Source of the DNA: an uncultured bacterium | GTDB lineage: Bacteria; Hydrothermota; UBA3072 | NCBI GenBank assembly: GCA_964474855.1 | Contig: CAYYUB010000002.1 | Coordinates: 1-43,990 of the forward strand | Length of the DNA: 43,990 bases | Direction of reading: 5' to 3' | Part shown: in pieces, positions 23,643-42,955 of the stretch | How the letters are laid out: every line of letters starts with the position of its first letter | Numbering within the stretch: position 1 is the stretch's first letter | Translations under genes and position numbers: made by a program | The notes under the pieces: model-generated | Database searches by the model: none | The model's input: the letters and a program-made list of their open reading frames with translations, nothing else | Told to the model about the DNA's origin: nothing

Positions 23643-23647
23643 AAATA

Positions 23648-23749: not shown

Positions 23750-23798
23750 TTCCAATTTTCCAAAAGGTCTTTAACAAACTTTTTCCTCATAAGACAAA

Positions 23799-27635: not shown

Positions 27636-27637
27636 AT

Positions 27638-27853
27638 CTATGCGTTGATGTCCTCTAATGAGTATTCTACTTCTTCTGAATTATTCCAGAAATCAAAAGC
27701 ACCAGTATTTAAAGAAAAATCACTCCAGGATTTTCCTTTCTCTGCTGAAAAACGTTTCCTTTCTTCAATAAAAGCAACAAAATCATAGATTTCATCTATT
27801 AAAGATTCGGGAAGTCTCTCTATTTCCTTTATAAGCTGCTTTTTACTTTTCAT
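27638..27853 (-). CDS. Putative cognate antitoxin (DUF2281-like small acidic protein)
   Basis: 71 aa. LIKEIERLPESLIDEIYDFVAFIEERK. Lies directly upstream of the toxin. AAGGAG SD. Confidence 0.6.
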   Translation of the reverse strand: MKSKKQLIKEIERLPESLIDEIYDFVAFIEERKRFSAEKGKSWSDFSLNTGAFDFWNNSEEVEYSLEDINA

Positions 27854-27879
27854 TATTATCTCCTTTACATTATTACGCT

Positions 27880-27908
27880 AAATTAAACAACGCTCCCTAT
27901 ATTGTCAA
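27880..27908 (-). promoter_or_regulatory. Candidate promoter of the toxin-antitoxin pair
   Basis: TTGACA(27908-27903)-17 nt-TAATTT(27885-27880), then a leader with AAGGAG. Confidence 0.45.
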
Positions 27909-27974
27909 GAGTTTCTTTCTAATCAATTCATCATACTTTGTAATTCACACATTTTTTCGCGCCGTTAGTGTAAT

Positions 27975-28146
27975 TTTTTGTTGCTACTTCTGTGGTGGGT
28001 TAGGTTCTAAAAAACAAGATTTTTCTTTGCGTTTTCTATGAGTTCTGTGTGAGAATATTTTTTCTGGGTCGGGTTGAGGAAAAAACAACAATTTTTTACT
28101 TTGCGACCTCTGCGTCTTTGCGGTGAATTTTAGCGGCTTTGCCGCG
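27975..28146. repeat. Mosaic intergenic repeat block A
   Basis: Contains reverse-orientation modules: cttctgtggtgggttaggttctaaaaaac, ctatgagttctgtgtgag, ctgggtcgggttgaggaaaaaac, ctttgcgacctctgcgtctttgcggtg (28099-28125), and the hairpin module. Confidence 0.75.
28133..28145 (-). terminator. Short GC hairpin immediately after the stop of the UDP-sugar dehydrogenase gene (member of repeat module f)
   Basis: GCGGC-TTT-GCCGC, then an A/T-rich tail on the minus strand. The same hairpin occurs at 34914-34926, with a degenerate copy at 40209-40226. Confidence 0.35.
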
Positions 28147-29445
28147 CTATGCTCTGAAAATCTTATCGCTTTTAATATCGGAAAGAGCGTTTCTTGTATC
28201 TACAACAATAGAAGAATTCTCAACAATATTTTTGTAATCGATATCTGAATGAGCAGTAACAATAATAACCCCATCCTGTTCCTTTAGAAATTCTTCTGTC
28301 AGTTTTACCGAACTCATGACCAAATCGGTCTGTCTCAGATCATATATCGCAGGAATATAAGGATCATAATAGGACACCTCTGCCCCACCTTTTTGAAGAA
28401 GCTCAATTATCTTTATACCCGGAGACTCTCTGGAATCATCAATATCTTTCTTATAAGCAATACCTATAACAAGAATTTTAGAACCCTTCAATGATTTATT
28501 ATTCTTATTTAAAGCGGAGATAGTTTTCATCACAACATATTCGGGCATCATTGTGTTAATCTCCCCGGCAAGTTCAATGAATTTGGTGTTAATTCCAAAT
28601 TTTCGCGCTTTCCAAGAAAGATAAAAAGGATCTATCGGAATACAATGCCCTCCAAGTCCCGGCCCGGGATAAAAAGGTTTAAAACCAAAAGGTTTCGTCT
28701 TAGCCGCCTCGATTACCTCCCACACGTTTATCCCCATCTTGTCAAATATAATTTTCAGCTCATTCACGAGAGCAATATTTACAGAACGATAAGTATTCTC
28801 CAATATTTTTGTCGCTTCGGCAACCTCAGCAGATGAAACTTCCACAATTTCGTCGAAAATAGTGTTATAAATTTCAACAACTTTCCTTCTCGACTGTTCT
28901 GTAATACCCCCAATCACTTTTGGAATATTTTTCGTAGTAAATTTTTCATTGCCCGGGTCTTCTCTTTCAGGAGAAAACGCGAGATAAAAACCCATATCCA
29001 ATTCATTCCCCGCATTCTCTAATATTGGAAGCAAAATTTCTCTGGTAGTACCGGGATAAACTGTAGATTCAAGAACAACTATAGCTCCCTGTTTCAAATT
29101 CTCCGCTATTGACTTTGCCGAATCCTCAACAAAAGATAAATCAGGCTGACGGTATTTATCAAGCGGGGTCGGAACACAAATAGATACCAAATCCACTTCG
29201 TTTAACCTCAAAAAATCAGTAGTGGCAGTAAAAAGACCGGAATTAAGAAAATCTTTGACCTTATCCTCTTGTATATGCTTTAAATAAATTTCTCCTCTGG
29301 AAAGCTTGTCAATCTTTCTTTCATCAATATCAAAACCAATAGTTTTGTATCCGGCACGTACAAATTCCATCGCGAGAGGTAACCCAACATAACCTAACCC
29401 AATTACCCCAAGGACTTTTTCGCGTTTCTCTTCATTATTTTTCAT
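28147..29445 (-). CDS. UDP-N-acetyl-hexosamine 6-dehydrogenase (nucleotide-sugar dehydrogenase, WbpA/WecC/Cap5O group)
   Basis: GVIGLGYVGLPLA NAD-binding N-terminus and the catalytic GGHCIPIDP motif. 432 aa. Confidence 0.9.
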   Translation of the reverse strand: MKNNEEKREKVLGVIGLGYVGLPLAMEFVRAGYKTIGFDIDERKIDKLSRGEIYLKHIQEDKVKDFLNSGLFTATTDFLRLNEVDLVSICVPTPLDKYRQPDLSFVEDSAKSIAENLKQGAIVVLESTVYPGTTREILLPILENAGNELDMGFYLAFSPEREDPGNEKFTTKNIPKVIGGITEQSRRKVVEIYNTIFDEIVEVSSAEVAEATKILENTYRSVNIALVNELKIIFDKMGINVWEVIEAAKTKPFGFKPFYPGPGLGGHCIPIDPFYLSWKARKFGINTKFIELAGEINTMMPEYVVMKTISALNKNNKSLKGSKILVIGIAYKKDIDDSRESPGIKIIELLQKGGAEVSYYDPYIPAIYDLRQTDLVMSSVKLTEEFLKEQDGVIIVTAHSDIDYKNIVENSSIVVDTRNALSDIKSDKIFRA

Positions 29446-29451
29446 AAAGTG

Positions 29452-29479
29452 AATATATTACTACTTTCTTATGTGTCAA
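29452..29479 (-). promoter_or_regulatory. Candidate promoter; -10 box ends 6 nt before ATG 29445 (leaderless-type)
   Basis: TTGACA(29479-29474)-16 nt-TATATT(29457-29452)-cacttt-ATG. No SD. Confidence 0.55.
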
Positions 29480-29487
29480 GACTAATT

Positions 29488-29757
29488 ACCACACAACCCT
29501 CATTTTTTCAACCACAGAGAACACAAAACCCTTCATCCACACCAAATTTGAACCACGAGATTTCACAAGATTAACACAAGATTTTCTGTTTCTTTAAAAA
29601 CCCACCCCAACAACGAATGATTAGCCACGGATGAACACGGATATAAAAAGGATATAAAATATTTTTTATTTAATAACAATAATATAGGGTAAGTGAGGGG
29701 ATCTGTGTCTATCGGTGAAAATCAGTGGCTGTTATTAATTAAATCCTCTGTGGTTAA
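29488..29757. repeat. Mosaic intergenic repeat block B (internally mirrored)
   Basis: AACCACAGAG (29510-29519) and CTCTGTGGTT (29746-29755) act as 10-nt terminal inverted repeats. Forward modules occupy 29551-29581 and 29596-29643. The centre AAAATATTTT is at 29656-29665. Reverse modules occupy 29686-29736. Confidence 0.8.
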
Positions 29758-29834
29758 AGATTTCGGGAGGCAGGCAATAATAGTTATGAGTGTACATGAG
29801 TAAATGGGTTAATGGGAAAGTTAGCGCCGCATAC

Positions 29835-29862
29835 TTGATTTTAAAATTCTTTTTCCTATATT
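29835..29862 (+). promoter_or_regulatory. Candidate promoter; -10 box ends 9 nt before ATG 29872
   Basis: TTGATT-16 nt-TATATT-cgtataacc-ATG. No SD. Confidence 0.35.
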
Positions 29863-29871
29863 CGTATAACC

Positions 29872-30690
29872 ATGTATAAATATTTTAAGAATATCAGGAG
29901 GGTTCTCAAAACAATAAATAATCCTTTAAAAAAATCCGAAAATGTTTCCGAGAAAGATAAGCTTGAAAGAGAATTTTACGATAAAGAGGCTGAAAAGTAT
30001 CTGCAAAATTTTGACGAAAATCTATTCCGATATGACGAAAACGAACCTTTCCCTCCAAGACATAAATTTTTCTATTCATTATTGGAAAACATTAAAGGGA
30101 AACATATACTTGATTGCTGCTGCGGATGGGGCTTCACTTCGGTGAAGCTCGCAAAACGAGGAGCTTTTATTTCAGGGATAGATATCTCCCCTAAAACGAT
30201 AAAACTGGCAGAAAAAAATGCACGGTTCAATAATGTATCCAAATTTATAAAATCAAAAATTATGTCGGTTCAACAGATGTCATTCGATGACAACACTTTT
30301 GACTATGCTGTTGGCCTTGGAGCCTTACATCATTTAAATTTAGAACTTGTAGGGAAAGAAATCAGCCGGGTGTTGAAACCGGGAGGAAAGGCTATTTTTC
30401 TTGAACCAAGGATTCCCTTCAGATGGATTATGGCTTTTAGAAGCGTAACTCCAATAAATTGTTACGAATCTCCGGGAGGAGGATCTTTAAGTGACAGAGA
30501 AGTATATGAATTTTCGCGTTACTTTTCAGACTACAGAGTTTATTATTTTCTACTACTAAGAAAATTTTTCAGGTTTCCTCTTTTAACTAAATTTGCCTCC
30601 AAAACGGACAAGATTGATTACTTACTTATCAACAAACTCCCGATTTTAAGAAAATTTTGCTGGGCTTTCGTCCTTGAGTTCACAAAATAG
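29872..30690 (+). CDS. Class I SAM-dependent methyltransferase
   Basis: ILDCCCGWGFTSVKLAKRGAFISGIDIS (motif I), VGLGALHHL and LKPGGKAIFLEP. Confidence 0.8.
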   Translation: MYKYFKNIRRVLKTINNPLKKSENVSEKDKLEREFYDKEAEKYLQNFDENLFRYDENEPFPPRHKFFYSLLENIKGKHILDCCCGWGFTSVKLAKRGAFISGIDISPKTIKLAEKNARFNNVSKFIKSKIMSVQQMSFDDNTFDYAVGLGALHHLNLELVGKEISRVLKPGGKAIFLEPRIPFRWIMAFRSVTPINCYESPGGGSLSDREVYEFSRYFSDYRVYYFLLLRKFFRFPLLTKFASKTDKIDYLLINKLPILRKFCWAFVLEFTK

Positions 30691-30740
30691 AACTGATTTC
30701 ATTATATTTCTCCCGGGATAAACAACAGCCTAAATAGACC

Positions 30741-30768
30741 TTGACAGCAAAGATTAATAATCTAACTT
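30741..30768 (+). promoter_or_regulatory. Candidate promoter; -10 box ends 7 nt before ATG 30776 (leaderless-type)
   Basis: TTGACA-16 nt-TAACTT-tctctca-ATG. No SD. Confidence 0.4.
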
Positions 30769-30775
30769 TCTCTCA

Positions 30776-31279
30776 ATGAAAAAAGAATTTGCTTCCATCC
30801 CATTTTTCGGACCCGGAAAAAAAGTAATCGATATAGGATGCTGGGATAATATCGAACCTTCAATAACACTGGCTTCAAAAGGAACCATTGTTTTTGCAGT
30901 AGACCGCTACCAAAAAATGACAGAGTTCAAAGAAAAACTTCTCAACTCAATTGAAAATAAAAAAGTCAGCAAAGAAATTTCAGAAAAAATTATTCCTTTA
31001 AAAGCAAACGCAATAAACCTGCCCTTCCCGGGGCAATGTATTGACGGAATACTTTTTCTATATTCAATATCCTGGCTAGAACAGTTCGGTACAGAACCTT
31101 TGATAGCTTATAAAGAAGCTATGAGGGTTTTAAAAAATGATGGATTAGTAATTATAACTGAATCAAACAACACCAGAGCGGAAATCCAGGAAAAATTCCT
31201 AAATACAATGATGAAAACGGAAAGAAGCGGAAATATTGTTATTGGAAGGAAATTCGCGCCCGAAGAAGAACTATTTTAA
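30776..31279 (+). CDS. Short methyltransferase-fold protein with a degenerate SAM motif
   Basis: VIDIGCWDN replaces the usual G-x-G-x-G motif. LKNDGLVIITE is post-motif-like. 167 aa. Confidence 0.55.
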   Translation: MKKEFASIPFFGPGKKVIDIGCWDNIEPSITLASKGTIVFAVDRYQKMTEFKEKLLNSIENKKVSKEISEKIIPLKANAINLPFPGQCIDGILFLYSISWLEQFGTEPLIAYKEAMRVLKNDGLVIITESNNTRAEIQEKFLNTMMKTERSGNIVIGRKFAPEEELF

Positions 31280-31280
31280 A

Positions 31281-31515
31281 ATAGCCACAAAGACACAAAG
31301 ATAATGGGACACAGATAAACGCAGATTGAAAAGGATTTTTTATTTCTAAATTCCTCCCAACCCAAAAATATATAGACAGGATAAAAAAAGGATTTACAGG
31401 ATTTTTATTTGTTGGTATTTTAAATTCCAACCCAACGAACCCAATGAACTCAACAAACTCCATAAACTAATAATCGCACAGATTAACACTGATTTTAAAA
31501 GATTTTTTGTTTTGT
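31281..31515. repeat. Mosaic intergenic repeat block C
   Basis: gccacaaagacacaaag (31284-31300), acgcagattgaaaaggatttttt (31319-31341), a 42-nt exact inverted match to block F (31373-31414), and aataatcgcacagattaacactgatt (31469-31494). Confidence 0.9.
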
Positions 31516-31575
31516 TTGACTTCTCAGTTGTACCACCATGTGCCTGAACTCTCCCCCGAATTAATAGACTCGCCC

Positions 31576-31604
31576 TTGACCTTTTTTAAGATACCGATTA
31601 TAAT
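31576..31604 (+). promoter_or_regulatory. Near-consensus sigma70-type promoter with a leader of about 170 nt before the 31779 methyltransferase gene
   Basis: TTGACC-17 nt-TATAAT. Confidence 0.55.
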
Positions 31605-31691
31605 CTTTAATAATAAATAAAAAATTAAAAAGGATAACTACATCGTCGAAAATCAACATTATATTAGACCAGATTTTCCAAATAGGAGGAA

Positions 31692-31748
31692 ATGATTAAG
31701 CTAAATAGGGGTAAAGGTGACATTATCGTCTATGAACCAGTTAGGTGA
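31692..31748 (+). CDS. Possible 18-codon upstream ORF in the leader of the 31779 methyltransferase gene
   Basis: AGGAGG lies 5 nt before ATG 31692. Hand translation: MIKLNRGKGDIIVYEPVR*. Located between the consensus promoter (31576-31604) and the ATG at 31779. Confidence 0.3.
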   Translation: MIKLNRGKGDIIVYEPVR

Positions 31749-31778
31749 AAACCGTTTAAACCACTAAGGAAGATTTAT

Positions 31779-32582
31779 ATGAAAAAAAACAAGGCAATTG
31801 AACATAATATCCGGGGCCATGATAGCATCTATAATAAATATGAGCAAATACATGGTGAAATTTTTAACCCTATAGAACAAGAGCGTCTCCGTAAACAACT
31901 CTCACTAGCGATTAGATATATCAAAACATCTTCAATCCAAAAAGAAGCGCTTGATTATGGCTGTGGATCAGGGAATCTTACACAACATATGATTGCCTTA
32001 GGTTTTTATGTGGTTTCTACGGACATCTCGGAAAAATTTCTCACACTTATTAAAGAAAAATATAACCATACTGAAAAATCAGAGCCCTTGAAAATCAATG
32101 GACAAGACTTGTCTAATATTGAAAATAATCGGTTTGATTTTGTTGCCACTTACTCTGTATTGCATCACGTTCCGGATTATCTACAAATAATCAAAGAGAT
32201 GGTTCGAGTAGCTAAACCAGGAGGCATTATATATCTTGATCACGAAGCGAATGAATCCTACTGGAAGAGTAATGAGTATGTCGAATTTCTACAATTAGTT
32301 CAACCTAAAAAAAATTGGAAAAGATTTTTAAAGTTATCGAGTTACATTAACAAAATTCGAACAATTATAAATCCGCGATATTCAGCATGGGGAGATATAC
32401 ATGTTTGGCCGGATGATCATATAGAATGGAATGAAATCGAAAATTTATTAGCAAATTGTGGATGCGAAATTGTTTTGAAAGAAGATTATTTGCTGTATAG
32501 AAAAGGTTATCCTGTCGATATTTATCAAGCGTACAAAAATAAAATTAATGAAACGCGAGTGTTAATTGCGCGTAAAAAATGA
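31779..32582 (+). CDS. Class I SAM-dependent methyltransferase
   Basis: ALDYGCGSGNLTQHMIALGFYVVSTDIS, VLHHVPD and AKPGGIIYLDHE. AAGGAAG SD. Confidence 0.8.
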   Translation: MKKNKAIEHNIRGHDSIYNKYEQIHGEIFNPIEQERLRKQLSLAIRYIKTSSIQKEALDYGCGSGNLTQHMIALGFYVVSTDISEKFLTLIKEKYNHTEKSEPLKINGQDLSNIENNRFDFVATYSVLHHVPDYLQIIKEMVRVAKPGGIIYLDHEANESYWKSNEYVEFLQLVQPKKNWKRFLKLSSYINKIRTIINPRYSAWGDIHVWPDDHIEWNEIENLLANCGCEIVLKEDYLLYRKGYPVDIYQAYKNKINETRVLIARKK

Positions 32583-32640
32583 TCTTCGCCTGACACAACA
32601 TTATTAAAGAAAATTCAACCCTGAAGAAAAACTTTTTTAA

Positions 32641-32842
32641 TATTACCGCAGAGACACTGAGAACGCAGAGAAAAAAAAAGAGAGTTTCTTTGTTGTTTTT
32701 TTACTAAATCCCAAACCCAAAATTCTAAATCCTAATTTTGTAATTTTGCTTTTTAATTTTTGATATTTTATTTTCAAGTTTTAACTGACCAACGCACCAA
32801 CCGTCTAACCGACCAACGGATTAATTTTATTAATCCAACCCC
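32641..32842. repeat. Mosaic intergenic repeat block D
   Basis: accgcagagacactgagaacgcagag (32645-32670). 32687-32778 is a direct copy of 35052-35138, and is followed by ccaacgcaccaaccgtctaaccgaccaacgg. Confidence 0.85.
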
Positions 32843-34447
32843 TCACCTTCCCACAGAAACAACTGTCTTTTCTATACTTCTCGTAGAGCCGTCAGCGTCT
32901 TCGATCAATAAAAAAACTACGTAGAGACCTGTAGGAACTATCTCACTCCTGCTGTCTTTTCCATCCCATATCCACTCTCCTCTTTCCCCTCCATAACTAT
33001 CTCTATTTTCACGTAAAAGATGCCCTCTCCTATCATATATTTTGACAGTCACTTCATTTCTCAGGTAAGGAAGATTAAAAGAAATCACACAAGTTTCACC
33101 TACCCCATCCCCATCAGGTGTAAAATGCTCAGGAGTTACTGCAAGAGAAACGTCCGTTCTCTTATACTCGGCGAATACTGAATTTACCTCTCCCGGCGTA
33201 CCACCTTCCCCTACGGACTGCCCCCAATTTGTGGGATTATCGGAAGATATTTCCGGATTGATTCTTTCTAAAGAATAATTTCTCTCGGCATTATTCGCGG
33301 AATAAACCACCCTATCCAAAACAAATCCATTCTCATCAAATAAAAAAACACTATCTCCACTGTTTGAAAATGATAGACTCATCTCTAAAACCGAGGAAGG
33401 TATATTGCCATAATAACTCAAAAAAGAAGTAGAATCCGAGGTGATTACAAGAAAATCTCCGGGAAGAACTTCTATATCTGAAGAAGAAACATTATCTATT
33501 CTAAAAGAATCCAGTGAAACCTTATATTCAGATCTATTAAAAAGTTCTACCCATTCGGGCGGTCCACCTGGCGCATACATAATCTCATTTATAACAAAGC
33601 CCGATATTCCATCTCCTATCCTGACCCTTCTAAAAATAGTTTCACCTATCAAATCAAAACCAATAATATAAACACCTTCTGATAATAGCGAAAAATCAAT
33701 TCGGAAGGAAGAATCCTGCGAAATATCGAGAAGAGTAAAAGTATTAATTAACTCTCCTGCATCAAGAATCCTATTTTTATTCTCGTCATTAAAAACCTCT
33801 ATCGTTCCGCTTAATGCCACATCATGAGAATTAACCAAAAGAACCGATATATTATTGCCCAGAACCCAGAGAGAATCAAATAAGAAATCGGGAGCCGAAT
33901 AAACCGAATTCTCTCTTCCGGGTGTAGAACCGGAAACATCTTCACAAGCCCTCCAGTTCTCAGGAATATCACCGCTATAAGGGTAACCCCTTTCTATGGA
34001 AATTCCATCTCCCGGATTAGAAGGATTATAATATGTAGAAACCGTATCTCCAGCCGGAGAGATAAGGGCAATCGGATCCGTAGTTGCAAGCCCATTTCCT
34101 ATTGCAGCATCACCCACTGTAAGCAAAATACAGGAAGGAACGCCGTAGGGCATATAATTCTCACCCGAATCTACATACTCGGGATCCAATATAAGCGCAA
34201 ATTCTCCCGGCAAAACAATAGCGATAGAATCTCCGGAAAGAGCATGGAAAGGAACAATTTCATCAACAGCATCAAAATCAAAATCCGTAATCTTCCAACC
34301 ATCTAAATTTACCGTGTCGGGACCCGTATTAAAAACTTCAATAAACTCATTCCTATCCTCAGGAGATCCAACCCCACTGGACCCAAGAGGGTTTGACATT
34401 ACCTCGTTGATACAAACAGCAGAAAATAACAAAAATAAAAAACACAT
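32843..34447 (-). CDS. Secreted protein with two lamin-tail (LTD) domains, a central Ig-like region and a FlgD-Ig/T9SS-type C-terminal beta-sandwich
   Basis: Signal peptide MCFLFLLFSAVC. LTD signatures INEVMSNP...NEFIEVFNTG...LDGWKI and INEIMYAPGGPPEWVELFN. C-terminus VTVKIYDRRGHLL...WDGKDSRSEIVPTGLYVVFLL. Confidence 0.7.
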   Translation of the reverse strand: MCFLFLLFSAVCINEVMSNPLGSSGVGSPEDRNEFIEVFNTGPDTVNLDGWKITDFDFDAVDEIVPFHALSGDSIAIVLPGEFALILDPEYVDSGENYMPYGVPSCILLTVGDAAIGNGLATTDPIALISPAGDTVSTYYNPSNPGDGISIERGYPYSGDIPENWRACEDVSGSTPGRENSVYSAPDFLFDSLWVLGNNISVLLVNSHDVALSGTIEVFNDENKNRILDAGELINTFTLLDISQDSSFRIDFSLLSEGVYIIGFDLIGETIFRRVRIGDGISGFVINEIMYAPGGPPEWVELFNRSEYKVSLDSFRIDNVSSSDIEVLPGDFLVITSDSTSFLSYYGNIPSSVLEMSLSFSNSGDSVFLFDENGFVLDRVVYSANNAERNYSLERINPEISSDNPTNWGQSVGEGGTPGEVNSVFAEYKRTDVSLAVTPEHFTPDGDGVGETCVISFNLPYLRNEVTVKIYDRRGHLLRENRDSYGGERGEWIWDGKDSRSEIVPTGLYVVFLLIEDADGSTRSIEKTVVSVGR

Positions 34448-34455
34448 CTTGATTC

Positions 34456-34483
34456 ATTATAGAAGAAAAATATTGAATGTCAA
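34456..34483 (-). promoter_or_regulatory. Consensus promoter of the LTD-protein gene; -10 box ends 8 nt before ATG 34447 (leaderless-type)
   Basis: TTGACA(34483-34478)-16 nt-TATAAT(34461-34456)-gaatcaag-ATG. No SD. Confidence 0.6.
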
Positions 34484-34504
34484 GAACTCCCCCTAATGAC
34501 AAAA

Positions 34505-34886
34505 ATGGAAAACAAACATTCATTTGACCATAATTAAATTACTATAATGGCAAAACTTGACCATGTGGAAAACTTGTTGGAAAAATTCTACCCATGGACT
34601 AATTCACTGATTACCAATACTTTAAACCATATAACTTATCCACAACGTTTTATTATAAATCCTTCACTATTAGGAACTTAACAAAAGCGCAAGGTAATAA
34701 TAGAAATTGTATCGCTTATCAACTTTTTTATATCGGATTTTCCCCTAACGGAAATCTCTTCGTGGAAAATCTTGAAATACCCCAACTGTAAAACAAAAAA
34801 TTCTTAAAAAAAATTTTTAGAATTTTTTTATAGAGAATAAGCTTAGAGATTTTCTTACCCGTAAAAAGTTAACAAACTGTGGAAGG
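34505..34886. other. Cluster of DnaA-box-like 9-mers plus an A/T palindrome in an 853-nt gene-free gap
   Basis: TTATCCACA is perfect at 34636-34644. TTTTCCACA lies at 34564-34572 (reverse). TTTTCCACg lies at 34761-34769 (reverse). ccTTCCACA lies at 34878-34886 (reverse). There are further TGGAAAA cores at 34505 and 34578. The palindrome is AAAAAATTCT(34795-34804)/AGAATTTTTT(34819-34828). Confidence 0.3.
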
Positions 34887-34910
34887 TAAGTTATTGATAG
34901 GCGACATCCT

Positions 34911-35140
34911 AACGCGGCAAAGCCGCTAAAATGTAAAAATTAAATATCAAAATGTAAAATTATAAAAAAGAATTCAGAAGCCAGGAGTCGGAATCCAGAA
35001 TCCCAACCCAACTCCCAAAAAAATTATTGAACCACAAAGTGCACAAAGATTTTCTTTTTGTTTTTTTACTAAATCCTAAATCCAAAATCCTGAATCCTAA
35101 TTTATTATTTTGCTTTTTGATTTTTGATATTTGATTTACC
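34911..35140. repeat. Mosaic intergenic repeat block E
   Basis: Hairpin plus AAAATGTAAAAATTAAATATCAAAATG (34914-34962), cccaacccaactccc, accacaaagtgcacaaag (35031-35048), and a direct copy of block D (35052-35138). Confidence 0.85.
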
Positions 35141-35234
35141 AGAAAAAGACGAAGAAATAAAATGGGATATTTTTTGCAAAAAAAAACAAAAAGTTGACTG
35201 ACAGTACTATAGAGAAGCGAACTTCTTAATGAAA

Positions 35235-35265
35235 GAAACCCGGGGAATTCACCTCTCAGGGTTTC
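35235..35265 (-). terminator. Stem-loop downstream of the porin-like gene
   Basis: GAAACCC(35235-35241)...GGGTTTC(35259-35265), a 7-bp stem with a 17-nt loop. It is followed by a T-run on both strands and begins 36 nt after the stop. Confidence 0.45.
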
Positions 35266-35300
35266 TTATTGAAAGTCTATGTTCTCTCTAAAAAGTAGTC

Positions 35301-36314
35301 TTACTGGGTAAAAATATTGCTAAAACCCCACTGCAATTGAACCATCAATTGAGTAATATCACTCATAATATCATCCTCAAAAATAGTTTTCTGTCCTTGA
35401 ATTTGCAGGAAAACTTGAGGTTTATCCTTCGCGTCTCTAACGATATTCCAGTTCAACCCTCCGATAATACGCGTATGACCATCATCCGCAATATCGCCGT
35501 TTTCGTCCCACATATCAAATCTACCGATAAGATCTACATCAATATTCATTAATTCTCTAAGTTTAAGTATAGGCATAACCATAAATCCATTGCTTTTAAC
35601 GCTATTTCTATTCTGAACGAGATACTCACCTAAGAGTTCAAAAGGACCTTTAGAAAAACGCCCCAAACCTATAACTGCAAGTTTATCCGTATCGGTAAAG
35701 TACAATACAGAACCCCCGAAAGTAAAACCTGGAACAAGCGTAAGCCTGAGGTTACCCAAAAGTTCTGGAGTAACGTCTAAATCGCTACCTGTAACAGTAT
35801 AGCCTTCTCCATTATAAATCGAAATCGAATATACCCCTTTATCGCTTGGAAGATTTCCGCAGAAAGCAATTCCATAATCAGCGGATTTTGCAACACCCTC
35901 TACTTCTTCCAGTACCTTCTCTATTGTAATATATTCCCAATCATAACCAAAACCGAAATAATGCTGAATTAAACCAACGCTAATTTTACTTTCCGGTATG
36001 GGTAAAACCTCAGCAAAATTAAGGTAGGCATACTTTACTCTAACGCCACCACCTGTAGTAGAAGTTTCGTCGGAGAAGAAATCCAGGTTAAATCTACCGT
36101 CTATCTTATCCGTAATAGTAGGCTCAATCCTGAAATAACCCCTCTCCAGAGTAAGTTTACTTTGAGTTACCTCATTATCAATAATTTCAGTGGTATACCT
36201 ATTCCACAATTTCATAGAAACCTTTGTCTCCCCTACCTCTCCCCCCATTAAGTTCATGGGAGTAAAAATAAAAACACTAACCAATAAATAAACCAAGCAC
36301 TTAAACCTTCTCAT
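35301..36314 (-). CDS. Putative outer-membrane porin-like beta-barrel protein
   Basis: Signal peptide MRRFKCLVYLLVSVFIFTPMNL, alternating beta-strand pattern and many G/Y/F/N residues. GGAGGG SD. Confidence 0.55.
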   Translation of the reverse strand: MRRFKCLVYLLVSVFIFTPMNLMGGEVGETKVSMKLWNRYTTEIIDNEVTQSKLTLERGYFRIEPTITDKIDGRFNLDFFSDETSTTGGGVRVKYAYLNFAEVLPIPESKISVGLIQHYFGFGYDWEYITIEKVLEEVEGVAKSADYGIAFCGNLPSDKGVYSISIYNGEGYTVTGSDLDVTPELLGNLRLTLVPGFTFGGSVLYFTDTDKLAVIGLGRFSKGPFELLGEYLVQNRNSVKSNGFMVMPILKLRELMNIDVDLIGRFDMWDENGDIADDGHTRIIGGLNWNIVRDAKDKPQVFLQIQGQKTIFEDDIMSDITQLMVQLQWGFSNIFTQ

Positions 36315-36469
36315 AAAAACCCTCCTACAATTTTACAAATTTACATTAAACATCACTTCTTAAAATCATCCTATAACAAAGATAACAATAGCGCTTCCAA
36401 TGAAAAATAAAACATAATTTAAATAGACTATTAATTAATTATCAACTACTGTCAAGGGCGAAAAACGCT

Positions 36470-36765
36470 ATCCGCCGAGGCTAACGGCAAAAAAAAAGAA
36501 TTCGTGTTATTTGTGTAATAATTAGTTTATTGAGTTTATAGAGTTCATTGGGTTTGTTGGGTTAGATTTAAAAAAACAACAAATAAAAATCCTGTAAATC
36601 CTTTTTTTATCCTGTCTAAATATTTGGTGTCGTGGGTTGGGTTCTAAACAAAAAAAATCCTTTTAAATCTGCGTCCGATTATTGGGGTGTGGTGTGGCTC
36701 TGTGTTCTCTGCCTGCCCCGTAGGGAAGAATGACCGTATCGGGGTGTCTCTGTGGCCAAAAACAA
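36470..36765. repeat. Mosaic intergenic repeat block F
   Basis: An inverted copy of block C (36521-36675, including the exact 42-mer 36577-36618), ggggtgtggtgtgg, ggctctgtgttctctgcc (36696-36713) and gtgtctctgtggcc (36744-36757). Confidence 0.9.
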
Positions 36766-36773
36766 AAAAAGGG

Positions 36774-36801
36774 TTGACAAACAAACAAAAATGAATATGA
36801 T
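36774..36801 (+). promoter_or_regulatory. Candidate csp promoter
   Basis: TTGACA-16 nt-TATGAT, followed by a 5' UTR of about 60 nt, as is usual for csp genes. Confidence 0.55.
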
Positions 36802-36863
36802 TACTCGATTGTTCATTTATGTATCTTTGTATACTCTAAAAAACCAAAGGAGGTCTTTTTAGT

Positions 36864-37064
36864 ATGGCTGAAGGTAAAGTAAAATGGTTTAGTGACAGGA
36901 AAGGATTCGGTTTCATTACAATGGACGACTCAAAAGACATATTTGTTCACACAACATCCCTTAGTGATGGTCTGGTTACACTTTCGGAAGGAGACGAAGT
37001 AGAGTTCGACCTTATCGAAAGTGAAAAAGGACCAAAAGCCGAAAACGTTAAAAAGATTCGTTAA
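36864..37064 (+). CDS. csp: Cold-shock protein, CspA family
   Basis: KVKWFSDRKGFGFI (RNP1) and DIFVH (RNP2). 66 aa. AAGGAGG SD and a leader of about 60 nt. Confidence 0.95.
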   Translation: MAEGKVKWFSDRKGFGFITMDDSKDIFVHTTSLSDGLVTLSEGDEVEFDLIESEKGPKAENVKKIR

Positions 37065-37159
37065 ACTTTAGTTCTCAATGTAAAGTTTCGATAAACAAAA
37101 ACATAAAAACAAAAACCCTCTGGTTTTGTTGTGTTGTTTGCTACGAATTTCATGCATAC

Positions 37160-37436
37160 AATAGTTAGGATGTTAGGAGGTTAGAAAGTTGGGGAGTTAA
37201 AACAAAAAAATAAACTTTGTGATCTCTGTGTCTTTGTGTGAGATATTAGGTTTTAGGTCTTGGGTTTTAGGTTTTAGGAAAAACAAATAAAAAATGGGAG
37301 GTGGTTGGGTAATCCGTGTGAATCTGTGTTAATCCGTGGCTAATTATTGGTGGTGCGGGATGGGTTTTAAACAAAAAATCCTTTTTAATCTGCGTTCATC
37401 TGCGTCCTATCATTGCGGGTAGTGTGGGTTCTGGTC
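37160..37436. repeat. Mosaic intergenic repeat block G
   Basis: ctttgtgatctctgtgtctttgtgtgag (37215-37242), ttaggttttaggtcttgggttttaggttttagg, aatccgtgtgaatctgtgttaatccgtggctaattatt (37311-37348), gggatgggttttaa (37357-37370) and aaaaaatcctttttaatctgcgt (37373-37395). Confidence 0.85.
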
Positions 37437-37464
37437 TTGATTTATTATATTAAACCGTTATATT
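37437..37464 (+). promoter_or_regulatory. Candidate promoter of the DUF2723 gene
   Basis: TTGATT-16 nt-TATATT, then a 23-nt leader with GGAAGGAA. Confidence 0.4.
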
Positions 37465-37487
37465 TGTCTCTAAATGGAAGGAAATAA

Positions 37488-40157
37488 ATGTACGATAGAA
37501 GAAAAATAACAGGGTTTTTATCTGTATTAATCGTTTTAATTTCAGCGTATTTATACACTATTGCCCCTACTGTTTCACTCTGGGATTGCGGAGAATTCAT
37601 AGCTTGCTCACACATCCTGGGAGTCCCACATCCTCCGGGAACGCCGTTTTTCATTCTACTCGGCAGAATATTTGATATCATTATCCCTTTCAATGAAGTA
37701 GCGAAAAGGATAAACTTTTTTTCGTCTCTCTCAAGTGCCCTGGCAGGAGGCTTCCTTTACCTCATCATACTCTCGGTTTTTCAGAGATTTAGAGAGAACA
37801 GAGGAAAAAGACTACCTCTAAGCAACCATCTTATCGCGGTATTTTCTGCTATCGGAGCCGGTTTTTCTTACAGTGTATGGGATACATCAGTAGAAGCAGA
37901 AGTTTATTCGACATCCATTCTGATACTGGTAATATGTTTATGGCTTGCTCTCCACTGGGATGAAAACCGGGAGATGAGAGGTGACGATAACTATCTTTTA
38001 CTTCTTGTTTATTTAATTTTTCTATCATTCGGTATTCATTTAATGCCTTTACTCCTTATTCCGGGTATTTTAGTTTTTGTAATAATGACAGACAAAAAAA
38101 TATTCAATAATCCAAAGTTAATTATTTTCTCCGCAATTCTCATATTAATAGGTATCACCACATATTATTACTTAATGGTAAGAGCGGTAAGTAACCCGGC
38201 GATAAACGAAGCAGACCCAAGCAATTTTTCGGCTTTATGGGATGTTATATCACGGGAACAATACGGACCCATGAAGATGTTCCCCAGAAAAACTCAAATG
38301 GAAACCAACCTCTCCTCTTTTATTGCGTTATTTGAACAAATAAAAATATTTTTCAAATATTTCTCATGGCAGTATTTCCCGTATCCGAGAGAATCCACCA
38401 ATAATCTGCTAAAGTATATATCAATAACAGGTACTTATGCATACATTTTAACAGGGTTCGGGGGTATGTTTATTCATTTTAAAAAAGACAGAAAAACTTT
38501 TTGGTTATTCTTTATTTTGTACCTTCTCGTAAGTTTAGGCCTTGTTTTTTATCTGAATTTAAAATTCTCTCCTTCCGATCCCAATCCGGCACATCAAGGA
38601 AGAGAGGTAAGGGAAAGAGACTATTTCTGGAGCTCGGCATATTTCCTTTTTATGTTTTACGTAGCAATAGGGTTATACTGGATATACGAAAAAATAAAAA
38701 AGATAAATAACTCTTATGGTTATTCAGGGTTGGCGTTATCCTTTTTGATAGGGTTTACACCGATGGTTTCCAATATAAACAGTCACGTCAACAGAAGAGG
38801 CAACTGGATTGCTTCCGATTACGCTCATAACTTACTAATCAGTATAGAAGAACATTCCATACTCTTTACATACGGAGACAATGATACATTTCCGGTCTGG
38901 TTTCTTCAAGAGGTAAAAGGTTTTCGGAAATTCGACCCCGAAAACAAAAAAGGAATTCGGCTTTCAAATTTTTCTCTTATGAATACGTCCTGGTATATAC
39001 GACAGCTAAAATTATCCGGTATACCTATGGATTTCGCTTCTCCCTTCAGAGGAACCAATATGGAAAGGGCATACCATATAAAGAAAAGAAACGGAGAAAC
39101 GAATTTAGATTTCGAACAATGGGTAATAAATAATATACAACCAATAAGGTGCGAAGACGGAAAATGGTTAAGGCCCGCAGATATTTTAGTAAGAAATATA
39201 ATACTTTGCGCAATAGGCAGGAAACCTACATTCAAAGACTTCATCATGCCGGCAGAAATATTCGTAAACGAATACATTAAAGAAGATTTCAAGCCTTTTA
39301 TCAATATATATTTTTCTTATCCTGTAGAATCTTATTCCGAAAAAGTCTTTGGCAGTCACTTTGAATTGGAAGGGTTCGCCTACCGTTTGGTAGGAAAAGA
39401 AGGAAGAGAAATGATAAATTCCAGAAAAATGCTTGATAAACTTGCCAACGAATTTAAAACAAGTTATTATGAAAATCCTACAATTTATACTGGAAGTGCA
39501 CAGGAGAAGCCTTTAGCTAACCATGCGTCTATTTATCTCATGTCTGGAAGCCAATCATTGGCGGAATTCAACGAAAAACATAAAAAAATAATTTCGGAGT
39601 CCGATAAAGATACATTAAAAATGTTAGAAAACATCTTCGAACACGCCTTTATCTTTTCAATGAACTCTCGGCTCTCTACTGTAGTACCCCCCCAGGTAGC
39701 AAACAAACTCAAAAAAATCTATTTCCTGCTTAATGAAAAAGAAAGAGCAACCAACTTTAGTGATTCGCTTCTTTCCATAATTAATACACCGCCACTTCAT
39801 TTCCTGCGAGCCGAAATGCTAACTTTAAATGTAAAAGATGAAAACTCCAGGGAGTTTAAAGAAGCAGAAAATGAATTCCTATCCTTACTTAACAATGAAG
39901 ACTTCAAGGCTTTCGGTTATGTAGGACTTACTGAACTTTACACCATGTCTAACGAGTCGGAAAAAATAAAAGAAATTATTTTAAAGATCAGTGAAGATCC
40001 AAAACTTGTAGAGAAAGTTCTCTTTTACGCTATGAGAGGCAATCCCAAAACAGCCATTAAACTGCTCGAAAGCTGGCAGGAAATATATCCCGGTGACGCA
40101 AGAAGAGTCGATCCATTGATCCGACAACTTAAAACGAGGGATAAAGAAGGATTCTAA
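37488..40157 (+). CDS. DUF2723 / TMEM260-like GT-C-fold membrane protein with a large C-terminal soluble (TPR-like helical) domain
   Basis: N-terminal hallmark TVSLWDCGEFIACSHILGVPHPPGTPFF, about 10 TM helices, 889 aa. Confidence 0.8.
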   Translation: MYDRRKITGFLSVLIVLISAYLYTIAPTVSLWDCGEFIACSHILGVPHPPGTPFFILLGRIFDIIIPFNEVAKRINFFSSLSSALAGGFLYLIILSVFQRFRENRGKRLPLSNHLIAVFSAIGAGFSYSVWDTSVEAEVYSTSILILVICLWLALHWDENREMRGDDNYLLLLVYLIFLSFGIHLMPLLLIPGILVFVIMTDKKIFNNPKLIIFSAILILIGITTYYYLMVRAVSNPAINEADPSNFSALWDVISREQYGPMKMFPRKTQMETNLSSFIALFEQIKIFFKYFSWQYFPYPRESTNNLLKYISITGTYAYILTGFGGMFIHFKKDRKTFWLFFILYLLVSLGLVFYLNLKFSPSDPNPAHQGREVRERDYFWSSAYFLFMFYVAIGLYWIYEKIKKINNSYGYSGLALSFLIGFTPMVSNINSHVNRRGNWIASDYAHNLLISIEEHSILFTYGDNDTFPVWFLQEVKGFRKFDPENKKGIRLSNFSLMNTSWYIRQLKLSGIPMDFASPFRGTNMERAYHIKKRNGETNLDFEQWVINNIQPIRCEDGKWLRPADILVRNIILCAIGRKPTFKDFIMPAEIFVNEYIKEDFKPFINIYFSYPVESYSEKVFGSHFELEGFAYRLVGKEGREMINSRKMLDKLANEFKTSYYENPTIYTGSAQEKPLANHASIYLMSGSQSLAEFNEKHKKIISESDKDTLKMLENIFEHAFIFSMNSRLSTVVPPQVANKLKKIYFLLNEKERATNFSDSLLSIINTPPLHFLRAEMLTLNVKDENSREFKEAENEFLSLLNNEDFKAFGYVGLTELYTMSNESEKIKEIILKISEDPKLVEKVLFYAMRGNPKTAIKLLESWQEIYPGDARRVDPLIRQLKTRDKEGF

Positions 40158-40204
40158 ATAGCTGCAAGTATGGTAAAACCACGAAATCAAAATTGACCAA
40201 AAAA

Positions 40205-40511
40205 ATAGCAGCGCTTCAAAGCCGCTAAAATGCAAAAATTAAATATCAAAATGAAAAATGACAAATCAAAATTCAAAAATGAATTAAAAAAAATTACCAC
40301 AGAGTGCACAGAGGAAAACAGAACACACAGAGTACACAGAGATTTTTATTATGTTCCTTAAAACCCATCCCAATACCCCAATAATAGCTACAGATGAACA
40401 CGGATTAAAAAAAATATTTTGTTGTTTAAAAATAAAAAATATTGGGGGGAGGTTGGGTAGTCTTGTGTTAATCTGTGAAATCTTGTGGTTACTATTTGGG
40501 GTGTGGTGTGC
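40205..40511. repeat. Mosaic intergenic repeat block H (both orientations in one gap)
   Basis: A copy of the block-E hairpin/A-T module (40213-40261), accacagagtgcacagag (40296-40313), acacacagagtacacagag (40323-40341), ttaaaacccatccc (40358-40371), aataatagctacagatgaacacggatt (40380-40406) and the centre AAAATATTTT (40411-40420). Reverse modules follow: ggggggaggttggg, and tcttgtgttaatctgtgaaatcttgtggtt (40461-40490). Confidence 0.85.
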
Positions 40512-41405
40512 ATGAATTGGACTAAAATCCCTGCATTCGCAAAGATAAATCTCGGTCTTCATATCCACGAAAAAAGAGAAGATGGCTTCCATTCAATCGA
40601 ATCTATCTTTCAAACGATATCTCTTAAAGATACACTCTACTTCAAACTGGAAGGAAACGTAATAGAGATTCTTTCCGACAATCCTAATTTGCCGGGTGGA
40701 CCCTCTAATTTAATATATAAAGCAGCAAGTATGTTTAAAGATAAACAATGTAAAGGATTTGGAGTTAAGATAAAAGTCGAAAAAAAAATACCGATTGGTG
40801 CGGGCCTCGGAGGAGGAAGTTCAAACGCGGCCGCAACCCTATTAACCTTGAATCGTTTACTGGAATATCCCAAAAATACGGAAGAATTAATGGAATGCGC
40901 AAAAAAACTTGGCTCGGATGTACCATTTTTTTTGAAAGGCGGAACAGCACTTGTAAAGGAAAGAGGGGAAAAAGTTGAATGGGTGAAAGATATCCCAACA
41001 TTTCAACTCTTGCTTGCAGTCCCTTCATTTCCAATATCGACAAAAGATGCCTACAATTGGTGGGATAACGAAGAAAAACAAGCCTTGACAAATGAAGACT
41101 TAAGCCTTATACTTCAAAAAATGCAAGAGGGAAAAAGGGAAATCTTTGGTAAATTGGAGAATTCCTTTTGTGAGATAATTTCAAAAAAATACCCTCAAGT
41201 AAAAAATGCTATGGAAGAGTTAAGAAGAATGAACCCAATAAATGTTATATTAAGTGGTTCTGGTTCTGCTATATATGCAATATTCGGATCAGAAAAATAC
41301 AACTATAGGGGGGGAGATATTAAAGAAGATCAATATACATTAATGAATTACAAAAGTATCTCCCGGGAAGAGTACTTCAACTTGTTAAAACCAAAGGAGG
41401 ACTAA
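40512..41405 (+). CDS. ispE: 4-diphosphocytidyl-2-C-methyl-D-erythritol kinase
   Basis: PAFAKINLGLHI and the GHMP motif KIPIGAGLGGGSSNAAA. The track start 40485 (GTG) lies inside repeat block H. ATG 40512 gives the usual N-terminal length. Confidence 0.9.
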   Translation: MNWTKIPAFAKINLGLHIHEKREDGFHSIESIFQTISLKDTLYFKLEGNVIEILSDNPNLPGGPSNLIYKAASMFKDKQCKGFGVKIKVEKKIPIGAGLGGGSSNAAATLLTLNRLLEYPKNTEELMECAKKLGSDVPFFLKGGTALVKERGEKVEWVKDIPTFQLLLAVPSFPISTKDAYNWWDNEEKQALTNEDLSLILQKMQEGKREIFGKLENSFCEIISKKYPQVKNAMEELRRMNPINVILSGSGSAIYAIFGSEKYNYRGGDIKEDQYTLMNYKSISREEYFNLLKPKED

Positions 41406-41875: not shown

Positions 41876-41904
41876 AAATTAAACTCCTTGCCCTTATAAT
41901 TTCT

Positions 41905-41976: not shown

Positions 41977-41983
41977 AAGAGAA

Positions 41984-42928: not shown

Positions 42929-42955
42929 ACAGACGCAATTTATTAGGAGGAGAAA

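Follow-up and report, generated by a model that had tools for sequence, protein, structure and literature searches.

What fills the gaps between transcription units in a variable bacterial locus, and does it serve the neighbouring genes? The locus considered here lies in a 43,990-nucleotide (nt) stretch from an uncultured bacterium (contig CAYYUB010000002.1 of assembly GCA_964474855.1; hereafter the window), in which eight blocks of short repeated words (G1 to G8; Table 1) are found between positions 27975 and 40511. An earlier note, made from the sequence alone, proposed that these blocks are mosaics of a few small modules that fill every intergenic gap of this region. Our analysis leans towards the interpretation that the eight gaps hold copies or fragments of an undescribed, non-coding interspersed repeat family that resembles REPINs (hairpin-forming doublets of repetitive extragenic palindromes, REPs), bacterial interspersed mosaic elements (BIMEs) and Neisseria intergenic mosaic elements (NIMEs). 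The repeats lie in the interval from a stop codon or terminator to the following -35 box. In relatives that share these genes they are missing or differ. Individual repeats have been replaced, nested or flipped.

Inspection of the sequence established that the eight blocks contain the modules as originally described. The word CACAGAG is present in nine copies in the 1,989 nt of blocks and in none in the remaining 42 kb of the window, the string CRCRRAGNNCRCRRAG has five copies in the window versus 0.00 expected from 100 shuffles, and all 16 tandem word doublets recovered from the window with a looser pattern lie within 28099-40487. Tandem 7-mers with periods of 7-11 nt, not counting AT-only words, cover 692 of the 1,989 block nucleotides (35%), compared with ~6% in shuffles, 4% in the other non-coding DNA of the window and 5-10% in coding DNA. 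The blocks are also mutually related, contrary to the absence of pairwise similarity that the earlier note had allowed for. Alignments of 100-220 nt between blocks have expectation values (E) of 1e-12 to 1e-40, and G3 is an inverted copy of G6 (178 nt, 83%, E 3e-40). Other alignments link G4 with G5 (98 nt, 87%), G2 with G8 (184 nt, 70%), G5 with G8 (151 nt, 70%) and G3 with G7 (222 nt, 65%). An exact 14-mer, TTAAAACCCATCCC, at 40358-40371 has its reversed copy at 37357-37370, and the junction string ATTATTGGGG likewise recurs in reverse, but at 36678-36687 and not at 36676-36685 as had been reported. In agreement with the note, the modules are absent from the other gaps of the window (5047-5207, 9215-9544, 23643-23798 and 25935-26117). 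The statement that every gap is filled does not hold, since an 85-nt gap (30691-30775) and a 463-nt stretch (34448-34910) lack arrays, and each gap retains array-free promoter or terminator flanks. These findings establish a genuine interspersed mosaic of non-coding repeats that is confined to gaps between transcription units.

Open reading frames (ORFs) called across the blocks look artefactual, as the earlier note suspected, having low-complexity translations and no Pfam match. Public gene calls in the gap between the TMEM260-like gene and ispE include an ORF of 54 amino acids (aa) (window 40351-40515, plus strand) with no Pfam match, and a public 116-aa ORF (contig L202, 13412-13762) that overlaps this array gap has no precomputed Pfam match. 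Both are probably spurious. At the gathering threshold, Rfam finds only tRNA-Gln in the window and, in 20 loci carrying the compact palindrome described below, only tRNA, signal recognition particle RNA and a group II intron. With E <= 1 over 27800-40700, the only match is a weak one to a cspA leader, outside the arrays. This cspA thermoregulator match (36804-37135, comprising the csp leader and gene; 18 bits versus a gathering threshold of 78, E = 0.36) is probably chance or a distant relative. The searchable literature contains related phenomena, but no paper with the characteristic strings of the family; the sole bacterial occurrence is a Bacteroides fragilis polymerase chain reaction primer that happens to end in CTCTGTGTTCTCTGTGGTG. 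The modules thus match no family in Rfam or the searchable literature, as first thought.

The elementary piece of the blocks is a tandem array of 2-5 copies, with a period of 7-11 nt, of words that conform to C-R-C-N-R-R-K (for example CACAGAG, CACAAAG, CGCAGAT, CACGGAT and CACAAGA). Most word arrays have only 2-3 copies with periods of 8-11 nt and spacers, and there are pure 7-nt arrays (TAAATCC x4.6, TTTTGAT x4.3 and TTAGGTT x4.7). In the lineage of the window, candidate division WOR-3, arrays are joined in conserved order with T-runs and C-blocks to form polar units of ~100-240 nt. Alignment of G3, G6, G7, the left halves of G2 and G8 and metagenome contig L172 yields a common backbone: a word array, a T-run (ATTTTT.. 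or AAAAGGATTTTTT), a C-block (GTTTAAAACCCAnCCC..ACCA), ATAnTTAG, a second word array, a T-run, a TAAAACC-type array, a third word array and a final T-run. The modules are therefore parts of colinear units, and the variable module order proposed at the outset was not borne out. Homologous arrays differ in the word they carry, with CGCAGAT, CACAAGAT or CACAGAG at one position, and CACGGAT, ACAGGAT or CACTGAT at another, depending on the copy. Words are more alike within an array, with a mean Hamming distance of 0.87 between array neighbours versus 1.99 between arrays (a contrast reached in 0 of 2000 permutations). Triplets often have the form A-B-A, such as CGCAGAG CACTGAG CGCAGAG or CACGGAT CACAGAT CACGGAT, and a hand count gave ~9 of these versus 5 of the forms A-A-B or A-B-B.

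Here we define the C-strand as the strand that reads CACAGAG, and its words as C-words. This strand is directed into the gap: over all loci collected, doublets read toward the gap centre by 203 to 84 (p = 1.6e-12), and in window-like contigs by 51 to 16. The inward polarity holds in tandem, convergent and divergent gene contexts. In G2 and G8, two units face each other across an AT-rich centre, and G1 and G3-G7 have one arm. CACAGAG words contain equal numbers of C and G. The skew of C over G is patchy and comes solely from the C-blocks; a reading of the arrays as Rho sites by their composition was dropped for this reason.

Array borders coincide with gene signals. Arrays end 0-15 nt upstream of -35 boxes or begin 0-15 nt past stop codons. 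Strong sigma-70-type promoters are visible in the locus, among them that of the LTD gene (TTGACA-16-TATAAT), and the blocks that are conserved with relative L215 (see below) begin or end at the promoter-like sites listed in Table 1.

Orthologous loci were retrieved by an exact-protein look-up with csp. Type A comprises six contigs from five Joint Genome Institute samples, whose arrays are without any difference or indel over the shared 30.6-44 kb; therefore, the arrays are not an assembly artefact. In type B (four contigs, one from GCA_964604245.1), genes are 86-98% identical and third codon positions differ by 8.5%, 594 of 1,817 array nucleotides align, and the other aligning non-coding DNA differs by 7.8%. 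Here G3, the next gene and G4 are swapped for other genes and another array; 322 nt at G5 are replaced by 66 nt with no clean borders; 279 nt at G7 are replaced by a different 396-nt array; the right parts of G6 and G8 are replaced; and a new array is present in the gap between the first two methyltransferase (MT) genes, MT1 and MT2. At G6, G7 and MT1-MT2 the substitute arrays are drawn from the same vocabulary and retain polarity, and at G8 a two-ended element of the G5 type stands in for the word arrays. Slippage on a short time scale was not seen, as no array indel exists among the six type-A or among the four type-B contigs. The density of single-nucleotide polymorphisms in arrays of near-identical strains is uninformative because all non-coding DNA at 30.6-44 kb shows zero differences.

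Two more distant relatives, L215 (GCA_964525555.1) and L217, encode TMEM260-like proteins 76% and 73% identical to that of the window, and their neighbourhoods are largely syntenic. At ~78% nucleotide identity, L215 shares with the window the blocks 28146-29519, 30740-31314, 31748-32654, 32835-34907, 35232-36465, 36744-37150, 37428-40158 and 40512-43989, and the breaks between them are array borders. The arrays are therefore the sole non-conserved parts of the locus. Borders derived in this way match those of the earlier note within ~20 nt, except at the outer ends of G2 and G3, where neighbouring sequence likewise fails to align or cannot be compared. Past the shared stop codon of the UDP-glucose dehydrogenase gene (udg), the 400-nt array of L215 is a different one, but it has the same polarity and ends at the same -35 box. 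Both relatives carry arrays of the same vocabulary in other gaps, for example after ssb. A comparison of strains at module borders had been suggested, and alignments between related strains do break there. Taken together, the strain and relative comparisons indicate that the arrays can be dispensed with, are gained and lost, and have functional signals at their borders.

Some observations on these contigs stand apart. The type-A contigs (L201, L203, L204, L206, L207 and L209) differ from one another by 0-2 bases over 30586-43990, and 60-82 sites in that interval separate each of them from the window; where contigs overlap, these sites are shared. All of these differences are coding (1.7-2.1% of third codon positions), with 0 in ~3.5 kb of non-coding DNA, and they are clustered, with 42 in 38000-39999, for example. 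Such clusters may be recombination tracts inside genes; their total absence from non-coding DNA is odd. By eye, the MT2-MT3 pair of L215 seems to be flanked by inverted ~130-nt copies of an element with GGACT/AGTCC-type words (~3990-4130 and 5640-5790), which recalls G3 and G6 flanking three window genes. The array-free 34448-34910 stretch is non-coding DNA upstream of the LTD/CHU_C gene with a perfect TTGACA-16-TATAAT (34483-34456, minus strand), a possible 44-codon ORF and no Rfam match, and it aligns both with type B (in a block 94% identical overall) and with L215 (in a block 76% identical overall).

Block G5 has a distinct construction. Its AAAATG-type array is predicted to pair with a TTTTGAT-type array ~170 nt away, and it is the sole block with a strong folding signal (RNAfold z = -5.6 for the plus and -3.7 for the minus strand). 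Single-strand folding of the other blocks is no better than that of shuffles; G2 and G8 reach z values of ~-2 or weaker, and their convergent arms are out of register, without a significant fold. Terminal inverted repeats are present in G5 and its relatives and absent from G1-G3, G6 and G7. Complete G5-type copies are found at L001 13701-13905 and L202 13458-13658 and, by eye, in the gap at 5048-5461 of L217, where the window G5 aligns to 5260-5454. Isolated left or right ends are present in G8, G4 and L001. The small hairpin GCGGC-AAA-GCCGC sits on the stop codon in G1 and just past TAA or TAG triplets in G5 and G8.

Table 1. Array blocks, their bounding signals and the genes of the locus. 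Positions refer to the window unless a contig is named.
Feature	Position	Strand	Description
G1	27975-28146	minus	Single arm; CGCAAAG CGCAGAG CGCAAAG at 28099-28125; start of block is the udg stop codon
G1 hairpin	28133-28145		GCGGC-TTT-GCCGC; adjoins stop codon 28147-28149
G2	29488-29757	both	Two units face to face; begins 9 nt upstream of the -35 box of the udg promoter (29479-29452, minus)
G2 left arm	29488-29650	plus	C-words
G2 centre	29651-29689		AT-rich
G2 right arm	29690-29757	minus	C-words
G3	31281-31515	plus	One full polar unit, starting 4 nt past the stop of the 167-aa methyltransferase gene; order: CACAAAG x2, CACAGAT/CGCAGAT, AAAAGGATTTTTT, C-block, ACAGGAT/AAAGGAT array, AACCCAA array, CACAGAT/CACTGAT, T-run
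G4	32641-32842	plus	CGCAGAG CACTGAG CGCAGAG, T-run, TAAATCC array (32704-32735), TTTTGAT array (32737-32783; right end of a G5-type element), CCAAC-type array; terminates at the LTD/CHU_C gene stop
G5	34911-35140	plus	Element with imperfect inverted ends: hairpin 34914-34926, left-end AAAATG-type array 34927-34976, right-end TTTTGAT-type array 35091-35138; interior: C-block, CACAAAG x2, TAAATCC array
G6	36470-36765	minus	Polar unit, C-words on minus; ends 9 nt upstream of the csp -35 box (36774)
G6 insert	36712-36746		35 nt, hairpin-like; interrupts a CTCTGTG array
G7	37160-37436	minus	Polar unit, C-words on minus; fills the space from the terminator-like hairpin of csp (~37108-37130) to the TMEM260-like -35 box (37437)
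G8	40205-40511	both	Degenerate hairpin 40210-40226; G5-type left end 40226-40283; C-word arm (plus) 40296-40406; AT-rich centre; arm with C-words on minus 40445-40511, adjoining the ispE start codon (40512/40513)
A-B-A-type triplets	28099-28125, 32645-32670, 37215-37242, 37311-37338, 40461-40487		Also at related loci
csp promoter-like site	36774-36801	plus	TTGACA-16-TATGAT; conserved signal bounding arrays
Other bounding promoter-like sites	37437-37464, 31576-31604	plus	
Other bounding promoter-like sites	29479-29452, 36455-36427, 34483-34456	minus	
TMEM260-ispE gap			354 nt in window, 42 nt in L215, 153 nt in L217
MT2-MT3 gap			499 nt in window, 18 nt in L215, not present in L217
csp-TMEM260 gap			423 nt in window, 219 nt in L215, 190 nt in L217
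Bacteroides gmd-fcl element	L219 2987-3075; L222		Inverted in place; 95% as reverse complement, 79% direct
Polysaccharide-biosynthesis cluster	1-27 kb		Tightly packed
Single transcription units	27.3-40.5 kb		MazF/DUF2281 pair, udg, three methyltransferases, secreted LTD/CHU_C protein, 337-aa protein of no assigned role, csp, TMEM260-like glycosyltransferase
Housekeeping operon	after 40.5 kb		ispE, spoVG, tRNA-Gln, prs, L25, pth

The earlier note had considered that the modules might be local to this locus. Instead, the same words and grammar are found in other WOR-3 lineages and in other phyla. In L001, the closest genome of a species-level collection (52% amino-acid identity), the words and their order (CACAGAG, CACAAAG and CACAAAT, with T-runs and C-blocks) are as in the window, and so are the AAAATG/TTTTGAT ends. 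A scan of metagenomes for CACAGAGNNCACAGAGATTTTT returned at least 120 contigs, with GC contents of 31-63% among the matches listed. Low-GC contigs (L088, L112, L128, L172 and L174) follow the grammar of the window, and L112 is 87% identical to G7 over 100 nt. Most other matched contigs carry a compact palindrome, TTnACCACAGAG-nn-CACAGAG-nn-CACAGAG, a loop, and CTCTGTG-nn-CTCTGTG-nn-CTCTGTGGTnAA, and some hold long mosaics of CACGGAT, CGCAGAT, CACAAAA and CACGAAT arrays. The compact inverted form was seen in 57 metagenome loci, in Bacteroides and in Gemmatirosa. Hosts include metagenome-assembled genomes of Latescibacteria and WOR-3, and an Anaerolineales-like contig on which the neighbouring gene is 82% identical to an Anaerolineaceae protein. 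In one 31% GC metagenome contig (L116, 9361-9492), a 55-nt composite, AAACCACAGAGAACACAGAGATTTTTTTAAACCACAGAATTCACAGATTTTTTTAAA, is tandemly repeated ~3x.

Matches in a plasmid collection were limited to Bacteroides (16 records, which are really chromosomal contigs) and Gemmatirosa kalamazoonensis, a cultured Gemmatimonadota species, and no plasmid record matched the window array itself. On plasmid 1 of G. kalamazoonensis (L221, 1450-1620), a CACAGAG palindrome is nested in the loop of a palindrome of CCGCAGAG words. In B. ovatus, the compact palindrome lies between gmd and fcl, and a 45-kb contig of B. finegoldii has at least five such elements, some made of CGCAGAT words; one element sits downstream of the hairpin-plus-T-run terminator that belongs to eno. 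The gmd-fcl element is flipped between these two species, with 70 of 74 positions matching as the reverse complement versus 59 of 75 in direct orientation. Viral contigs gave 4 matches in 2.9 million, and a phage origin was rejected on this count.

Among known modular repeats, the BOX elements of Streptococcus pneumoniae are intergenic repeats composed of boxA, a variable number of boxB and boxC. The family shares with BOX a conserved module order and variable copy number, but BOX modules measure 45-59 nt, are not tandem heptamers, are known from one genus and have no sequence similarity to the arrays. Heptanucleotide repeats provide another point of comparison, and the cyanobacterial STRR repeats were reportedly described by Mazel et al. 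in 1990. Other examples are the TAACTGA repeats of Beggiatoaceae, Cyanobacteria and Bacteroidetes (PMC4679880), the GGGNATC repeats of Xanthomonas and Nostoc (PMC4692102) and the paired tandem hepta- or octanucleotide sites of Geobacter metallireducens (PMC2700814). Like the arrays, these are short runs (2 to few copies) of 7-8-nt units, intergenic, near starts and stops, and patchy across phyla, and Geobacter also has pairs of arrays on opposite strands at variable distance (PMC2700814). The words differ, however, and in the family many word types are set in fixed order with T-runs and C-blocks, with units usually 1-4 nt apart, a polarity rule opposite to that of GGGNATC (PMC4692102), and no run of four G-tracts as a quadruplex needs. 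Thus, the family shares the heptamer unit and the intergenic habit with the STRR-type, TAACTGA, GGGNATC and Geobacter repeats, and differs from them in words and composite grammar.

In its working, the family is like REP, BIME and REPIN sequences (PMC3333891, PMC2817692, PMC3116915), which are high-copy, extragenic and non-coding, form inverted pairs able to fold into long hairpins (here the compact form), and occur as mosaic clusters with variable linkers, in nested or tandem arrangements between co-directional and convergent genes. The likeness to BIMEs drawn in the earlier note therefore stands for behaviour and fails for structure: the arms are tandem arrays of direct 7-nt words, whereas a REP unit is an imperfect palindrome of 30-40 nt, and the only small palindrome in the blocks is GCGGC-AAA-GCCGC. 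The GTAG tetranucleotide of REPs (PMC3333891) is lacking, as family heads read TT[ACG][AG]CCACAGAG. No gene for a REP-associated tyrosine transposase (RAYT) was seen among the scanned ORFs of the window, and REPs are lineage-specific, whereas the words of the family recur in several phyla. Compared with REPINs, the WOR-3 arms are separated, expanded to 100-240 nt and mostly unable to pair. NIMEs, composed of dRS3 and RS arrays (PMC1797815), are likewise long non-coding mosaics at syntenic sites that differ in content between strains, alternate GC-richer with AT-richer pieces, lie next to cell-surface and accessory genes, and have recombination end-points in or beside the arrays. Unlike NIMEs, the family is built of tandem heptamer-type words and is found far outside Neisseria, and a search of the window for dRS3 (ATTCCC-N8-GGGAAT) gave 2 loose matches versus 2.9 expected, both coding and none in arrays. 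The family thus resembles BIMEs and REPINs (PMC3333891, PMC3116915) and NIMEs (PMC1797815) in its working and fails their defining features. It also differs from integron attC sites: the window has no integrase domain, its genes lie on both strands, and most heads lack RYYYAAC.

Compact palindromes were also examined for signs of a transcriptional role. Their orientation shows no preference relative to transcription (17 same versus 19 opposite), and the hairpins have no asymmetry of folding energy between sense and antisense (n = 17 co-directional contexts, p = 0.9). Selection at the RNA level on these hairpins was rejected on these two results. Gene contexts of 36 tandem, 16 convergent and 16 divergent equal the neutral 2:1:1 ratio; an apparent avoidance of divergent gaps by hairpins (7 convergent versus 2 divergent) vanished in this larger count. 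On both strands a T-run precedes and an A-run follows the stem, which is the reverse of an intrinsic terminator, and terminator-like sites are not enriched in the region (8 versus 10.4 expected). A reading as intrinsic terminators was rejected on these two grounds.

How, then, should the arrays be explained? The possibility that the blocks form no family at all, and are simple low-complexity sequence or an artefact of assembly, can practically be dismissed: the region is AT-rich (35% GC), where short-period repeats are common, but the block alignments are strong, identical arrays come from five separately sequenced samples, the pattern is missing from shuffles and from the other gaps of the window, and other genera show the same grammar. 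It is very doubtful that the blocks are miniature inverted-repeat transposable elements (MITEs) moved by a transposase encoded elsewhere, of which G5 would be an intact copy and the others decayed or truncated ones. The imperfect, ~48-nt inverted ends of G5, its folding far better than shuffles, its presence in type A and lack in type B, the complete copies with the same ends at unrelated sites of L001, L202 and L217, the end sequences that are 79-85% identical though the proteins are only 52-76% identical, and the lone ends in G8, G4 and L001 are all consistent with this possibility. However, the G5 polymorphism is a replacement that showed neither a target-site duplication nor a clean empty site, no transposase was found in the window, the ends are AT-rich low-complexity heptamer arrays, and G1-G3, G6 and G7 have neither inverted ends nor a folding signal.

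A role in gene expression would account for other features. The arrays might be transcription insulators or 3'-end elements that isolate neighbouring units: polymerase arriving from either side would transcribe an unstructured C/A-rich arm and then its complement, leading to Rho loading or to a hairpin that stops or protects transcripts. This agrees with arrays that begin 0-15 nt past the stops of MT2, MT3, the TMEM260-like gene and udg with no obvious intrinsic terminator, with convergent polarity in all gene contexts that is retained when content is replaced, with folding of G3 and G7 no stronger than shuffles, with a gmd-fcl hairpin conserved between Bacteroides species, and with the reported facilitation of Rho-dependent termination by REPs (PMC2817692). 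Yet the flanking T- and A-runs have the wrong order for a terminator, terminator-like sites are not in excess, one element lies beyond the eno terminator and another inside the gmd-fcl pair, the words are balanced in C and G, single-arm co-directional gaps are by eye about equally G-sense and C-sense, and relatives manage without arrays; we regard this explanation as unlikely, though not far-fetched. Chances look slimmer still for arrays of binding sites for a protein with a ~7-nt footprint, acting as regulators or sponges. Candidate proteins would be single-strand binders of the cold-shock or S1 type on RNA and, on DNA, a nucleoid protein or gyrase. The 7-11-nt unit and the identity of neighbouring words fit cooperative binding of several copies of one protein. 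Also in favour are the recurrence of words across phyla and GC contents, the A-B-A triplets, and the A(N)GGA-like words (ACAGGAT, AAAGGAT and CACGGAT) in some arrays; heptamer repeats elsewhere have been suggested to be sites for S1, Csp or CsrA (PMC4679880) or for IHF/HU (PMC2700814). Against such binding, word types vary freely at homologous positions, close relatives replace or lack arrays while neighbouring genes are unchanged, compact palindromes have no preferred orientation to transcription, and several arrays precede the -35 box and are not part of the downstream gene's mRNA. There is also a rather small chance that the words are recognition sites of a conserved trans-acting system that builds, homogenises and flips arrays, making them polar, insulating chromosome punctuation that marks the borders of accessory-gene exchange. 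The hosts would be bacteria of the Fibrobacteres-Chlorobi-Bacteroidetes group (WOR-3, Bacteroidota, Latescibacteria and Gemmatimonadota) and some Chloroflexota, and candidates for the protein are a domesticated single-strand recombinase or another heptamer reader.

We return to an interspersed repeat family as the somewhat preferred interpretation. Several observations weigh against it. No transposase, RAYT, integrase or cas gene was found in the window among 33 non-overlapping ORFs (all those of at least 100 aa except two, at 17-391 and 41984-42928, plus a 71-aa antitoxin), none of which matched a Y1 transposase or integrase, and the array differences between types A and B are replacements in which no target-site duplications were found. 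Mobility can therefore be deduced only from nesting, flipping and presence or absence. The A-B-A triplets are not predicted by simple slippage or duplication of neighbours. In type B, G2 is 98% identical versus 95% for the neighbouring genes, and the gmd-fcl element is 95% identical once flipped versus 85-89% for its flanks, which fits either selection or homogenisation against other copies. The same heptamers occur from ~31% to >60% GC and in distant phyla, which is unusual for REP-type elements; this identity of words hints at a conserved recognising factor or function. Because of the cross-phylum words, the conservation of G2 and of the gmd-fcl element, and the A-B-A triplets, the functional explanations stay alive.

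If the arrays are such a family, then the WOR-3 polar units would be an expanded, AT-rich version of the compact palindrome TTnACCACAGAG-nn-CACAGAG ... CTCTGTG-nn-CTCTGTGGTnAA. The arrays would behave as selfish or structural intergenic DNA. Dispersed copies would recombine with one another, hairpins would mediate template switching or inversion, and local slippage would add to the spread and turnover; a mobilising enzyme might also move the arrays. Nested palindromes in Gemmatirosa, the nested insert of G6 and the flipped gmd-fcl element support dynamics of this kind. Arrays would be tolerated only where gene signals stay undisturbed and, as a by-product, may supply breakpoints for swapping neighbouring accessory cell-envelope genes.

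REP, BIME, REPIN, NIME and STRR repeats shape genome plasticity and gene expression, and most of their characterisation comes from Proteobacteria, Neisseria and cyanobacteria. Here, one 7-nt vocabulary, absent from Rfam and from the searchable literature, spans uncultured WOR-3 and Latescibacteria, Gemmatirosa and human-gut Bacteroides. In the WOR-3 lineage, its arrays account for essentially all the DNA that is not conserved in a variable cell-envelope locus, and they are present at every alignment break between related strains. The finding is of value mainly because it reveals a repeat vocabulary that is widespread and undescribed and that extends to Bacteroides, a genetically tractable host in which the compact form opens function and mobility (termination, mRNA stability, protein binding and recombination) to existing genetics and transcriptomics. 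Gene callers yield spurious low-complexity ORFs from the arrays, and the arrays are also places where metagenome assemblies and strain-level recombination analyses are likely to break.

The genes of the window provide some further context. The source organism is placed in candidate division WOR-3 because homologues of the TMEM260-like protein, at 49-65% identity, carry that label. Integron, transposon and CRISPR readings of the locus were dropped, as none of the scanned window ORFs is an integrase, transposase or cas gene. At the left edge of the array-rich stretch lie genes for a MazF (PemK) toxin and a DUF2281 antitoxin-like protein (27276-27853), and in relative L217 a PemK gene sits at a different position. 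The 3' part of the spoVG-like gene (41738-41865) is a coding 18-nt tandem repeat that specifies an acidic tail, and this repeat is the only indel site among the type-B contigs.

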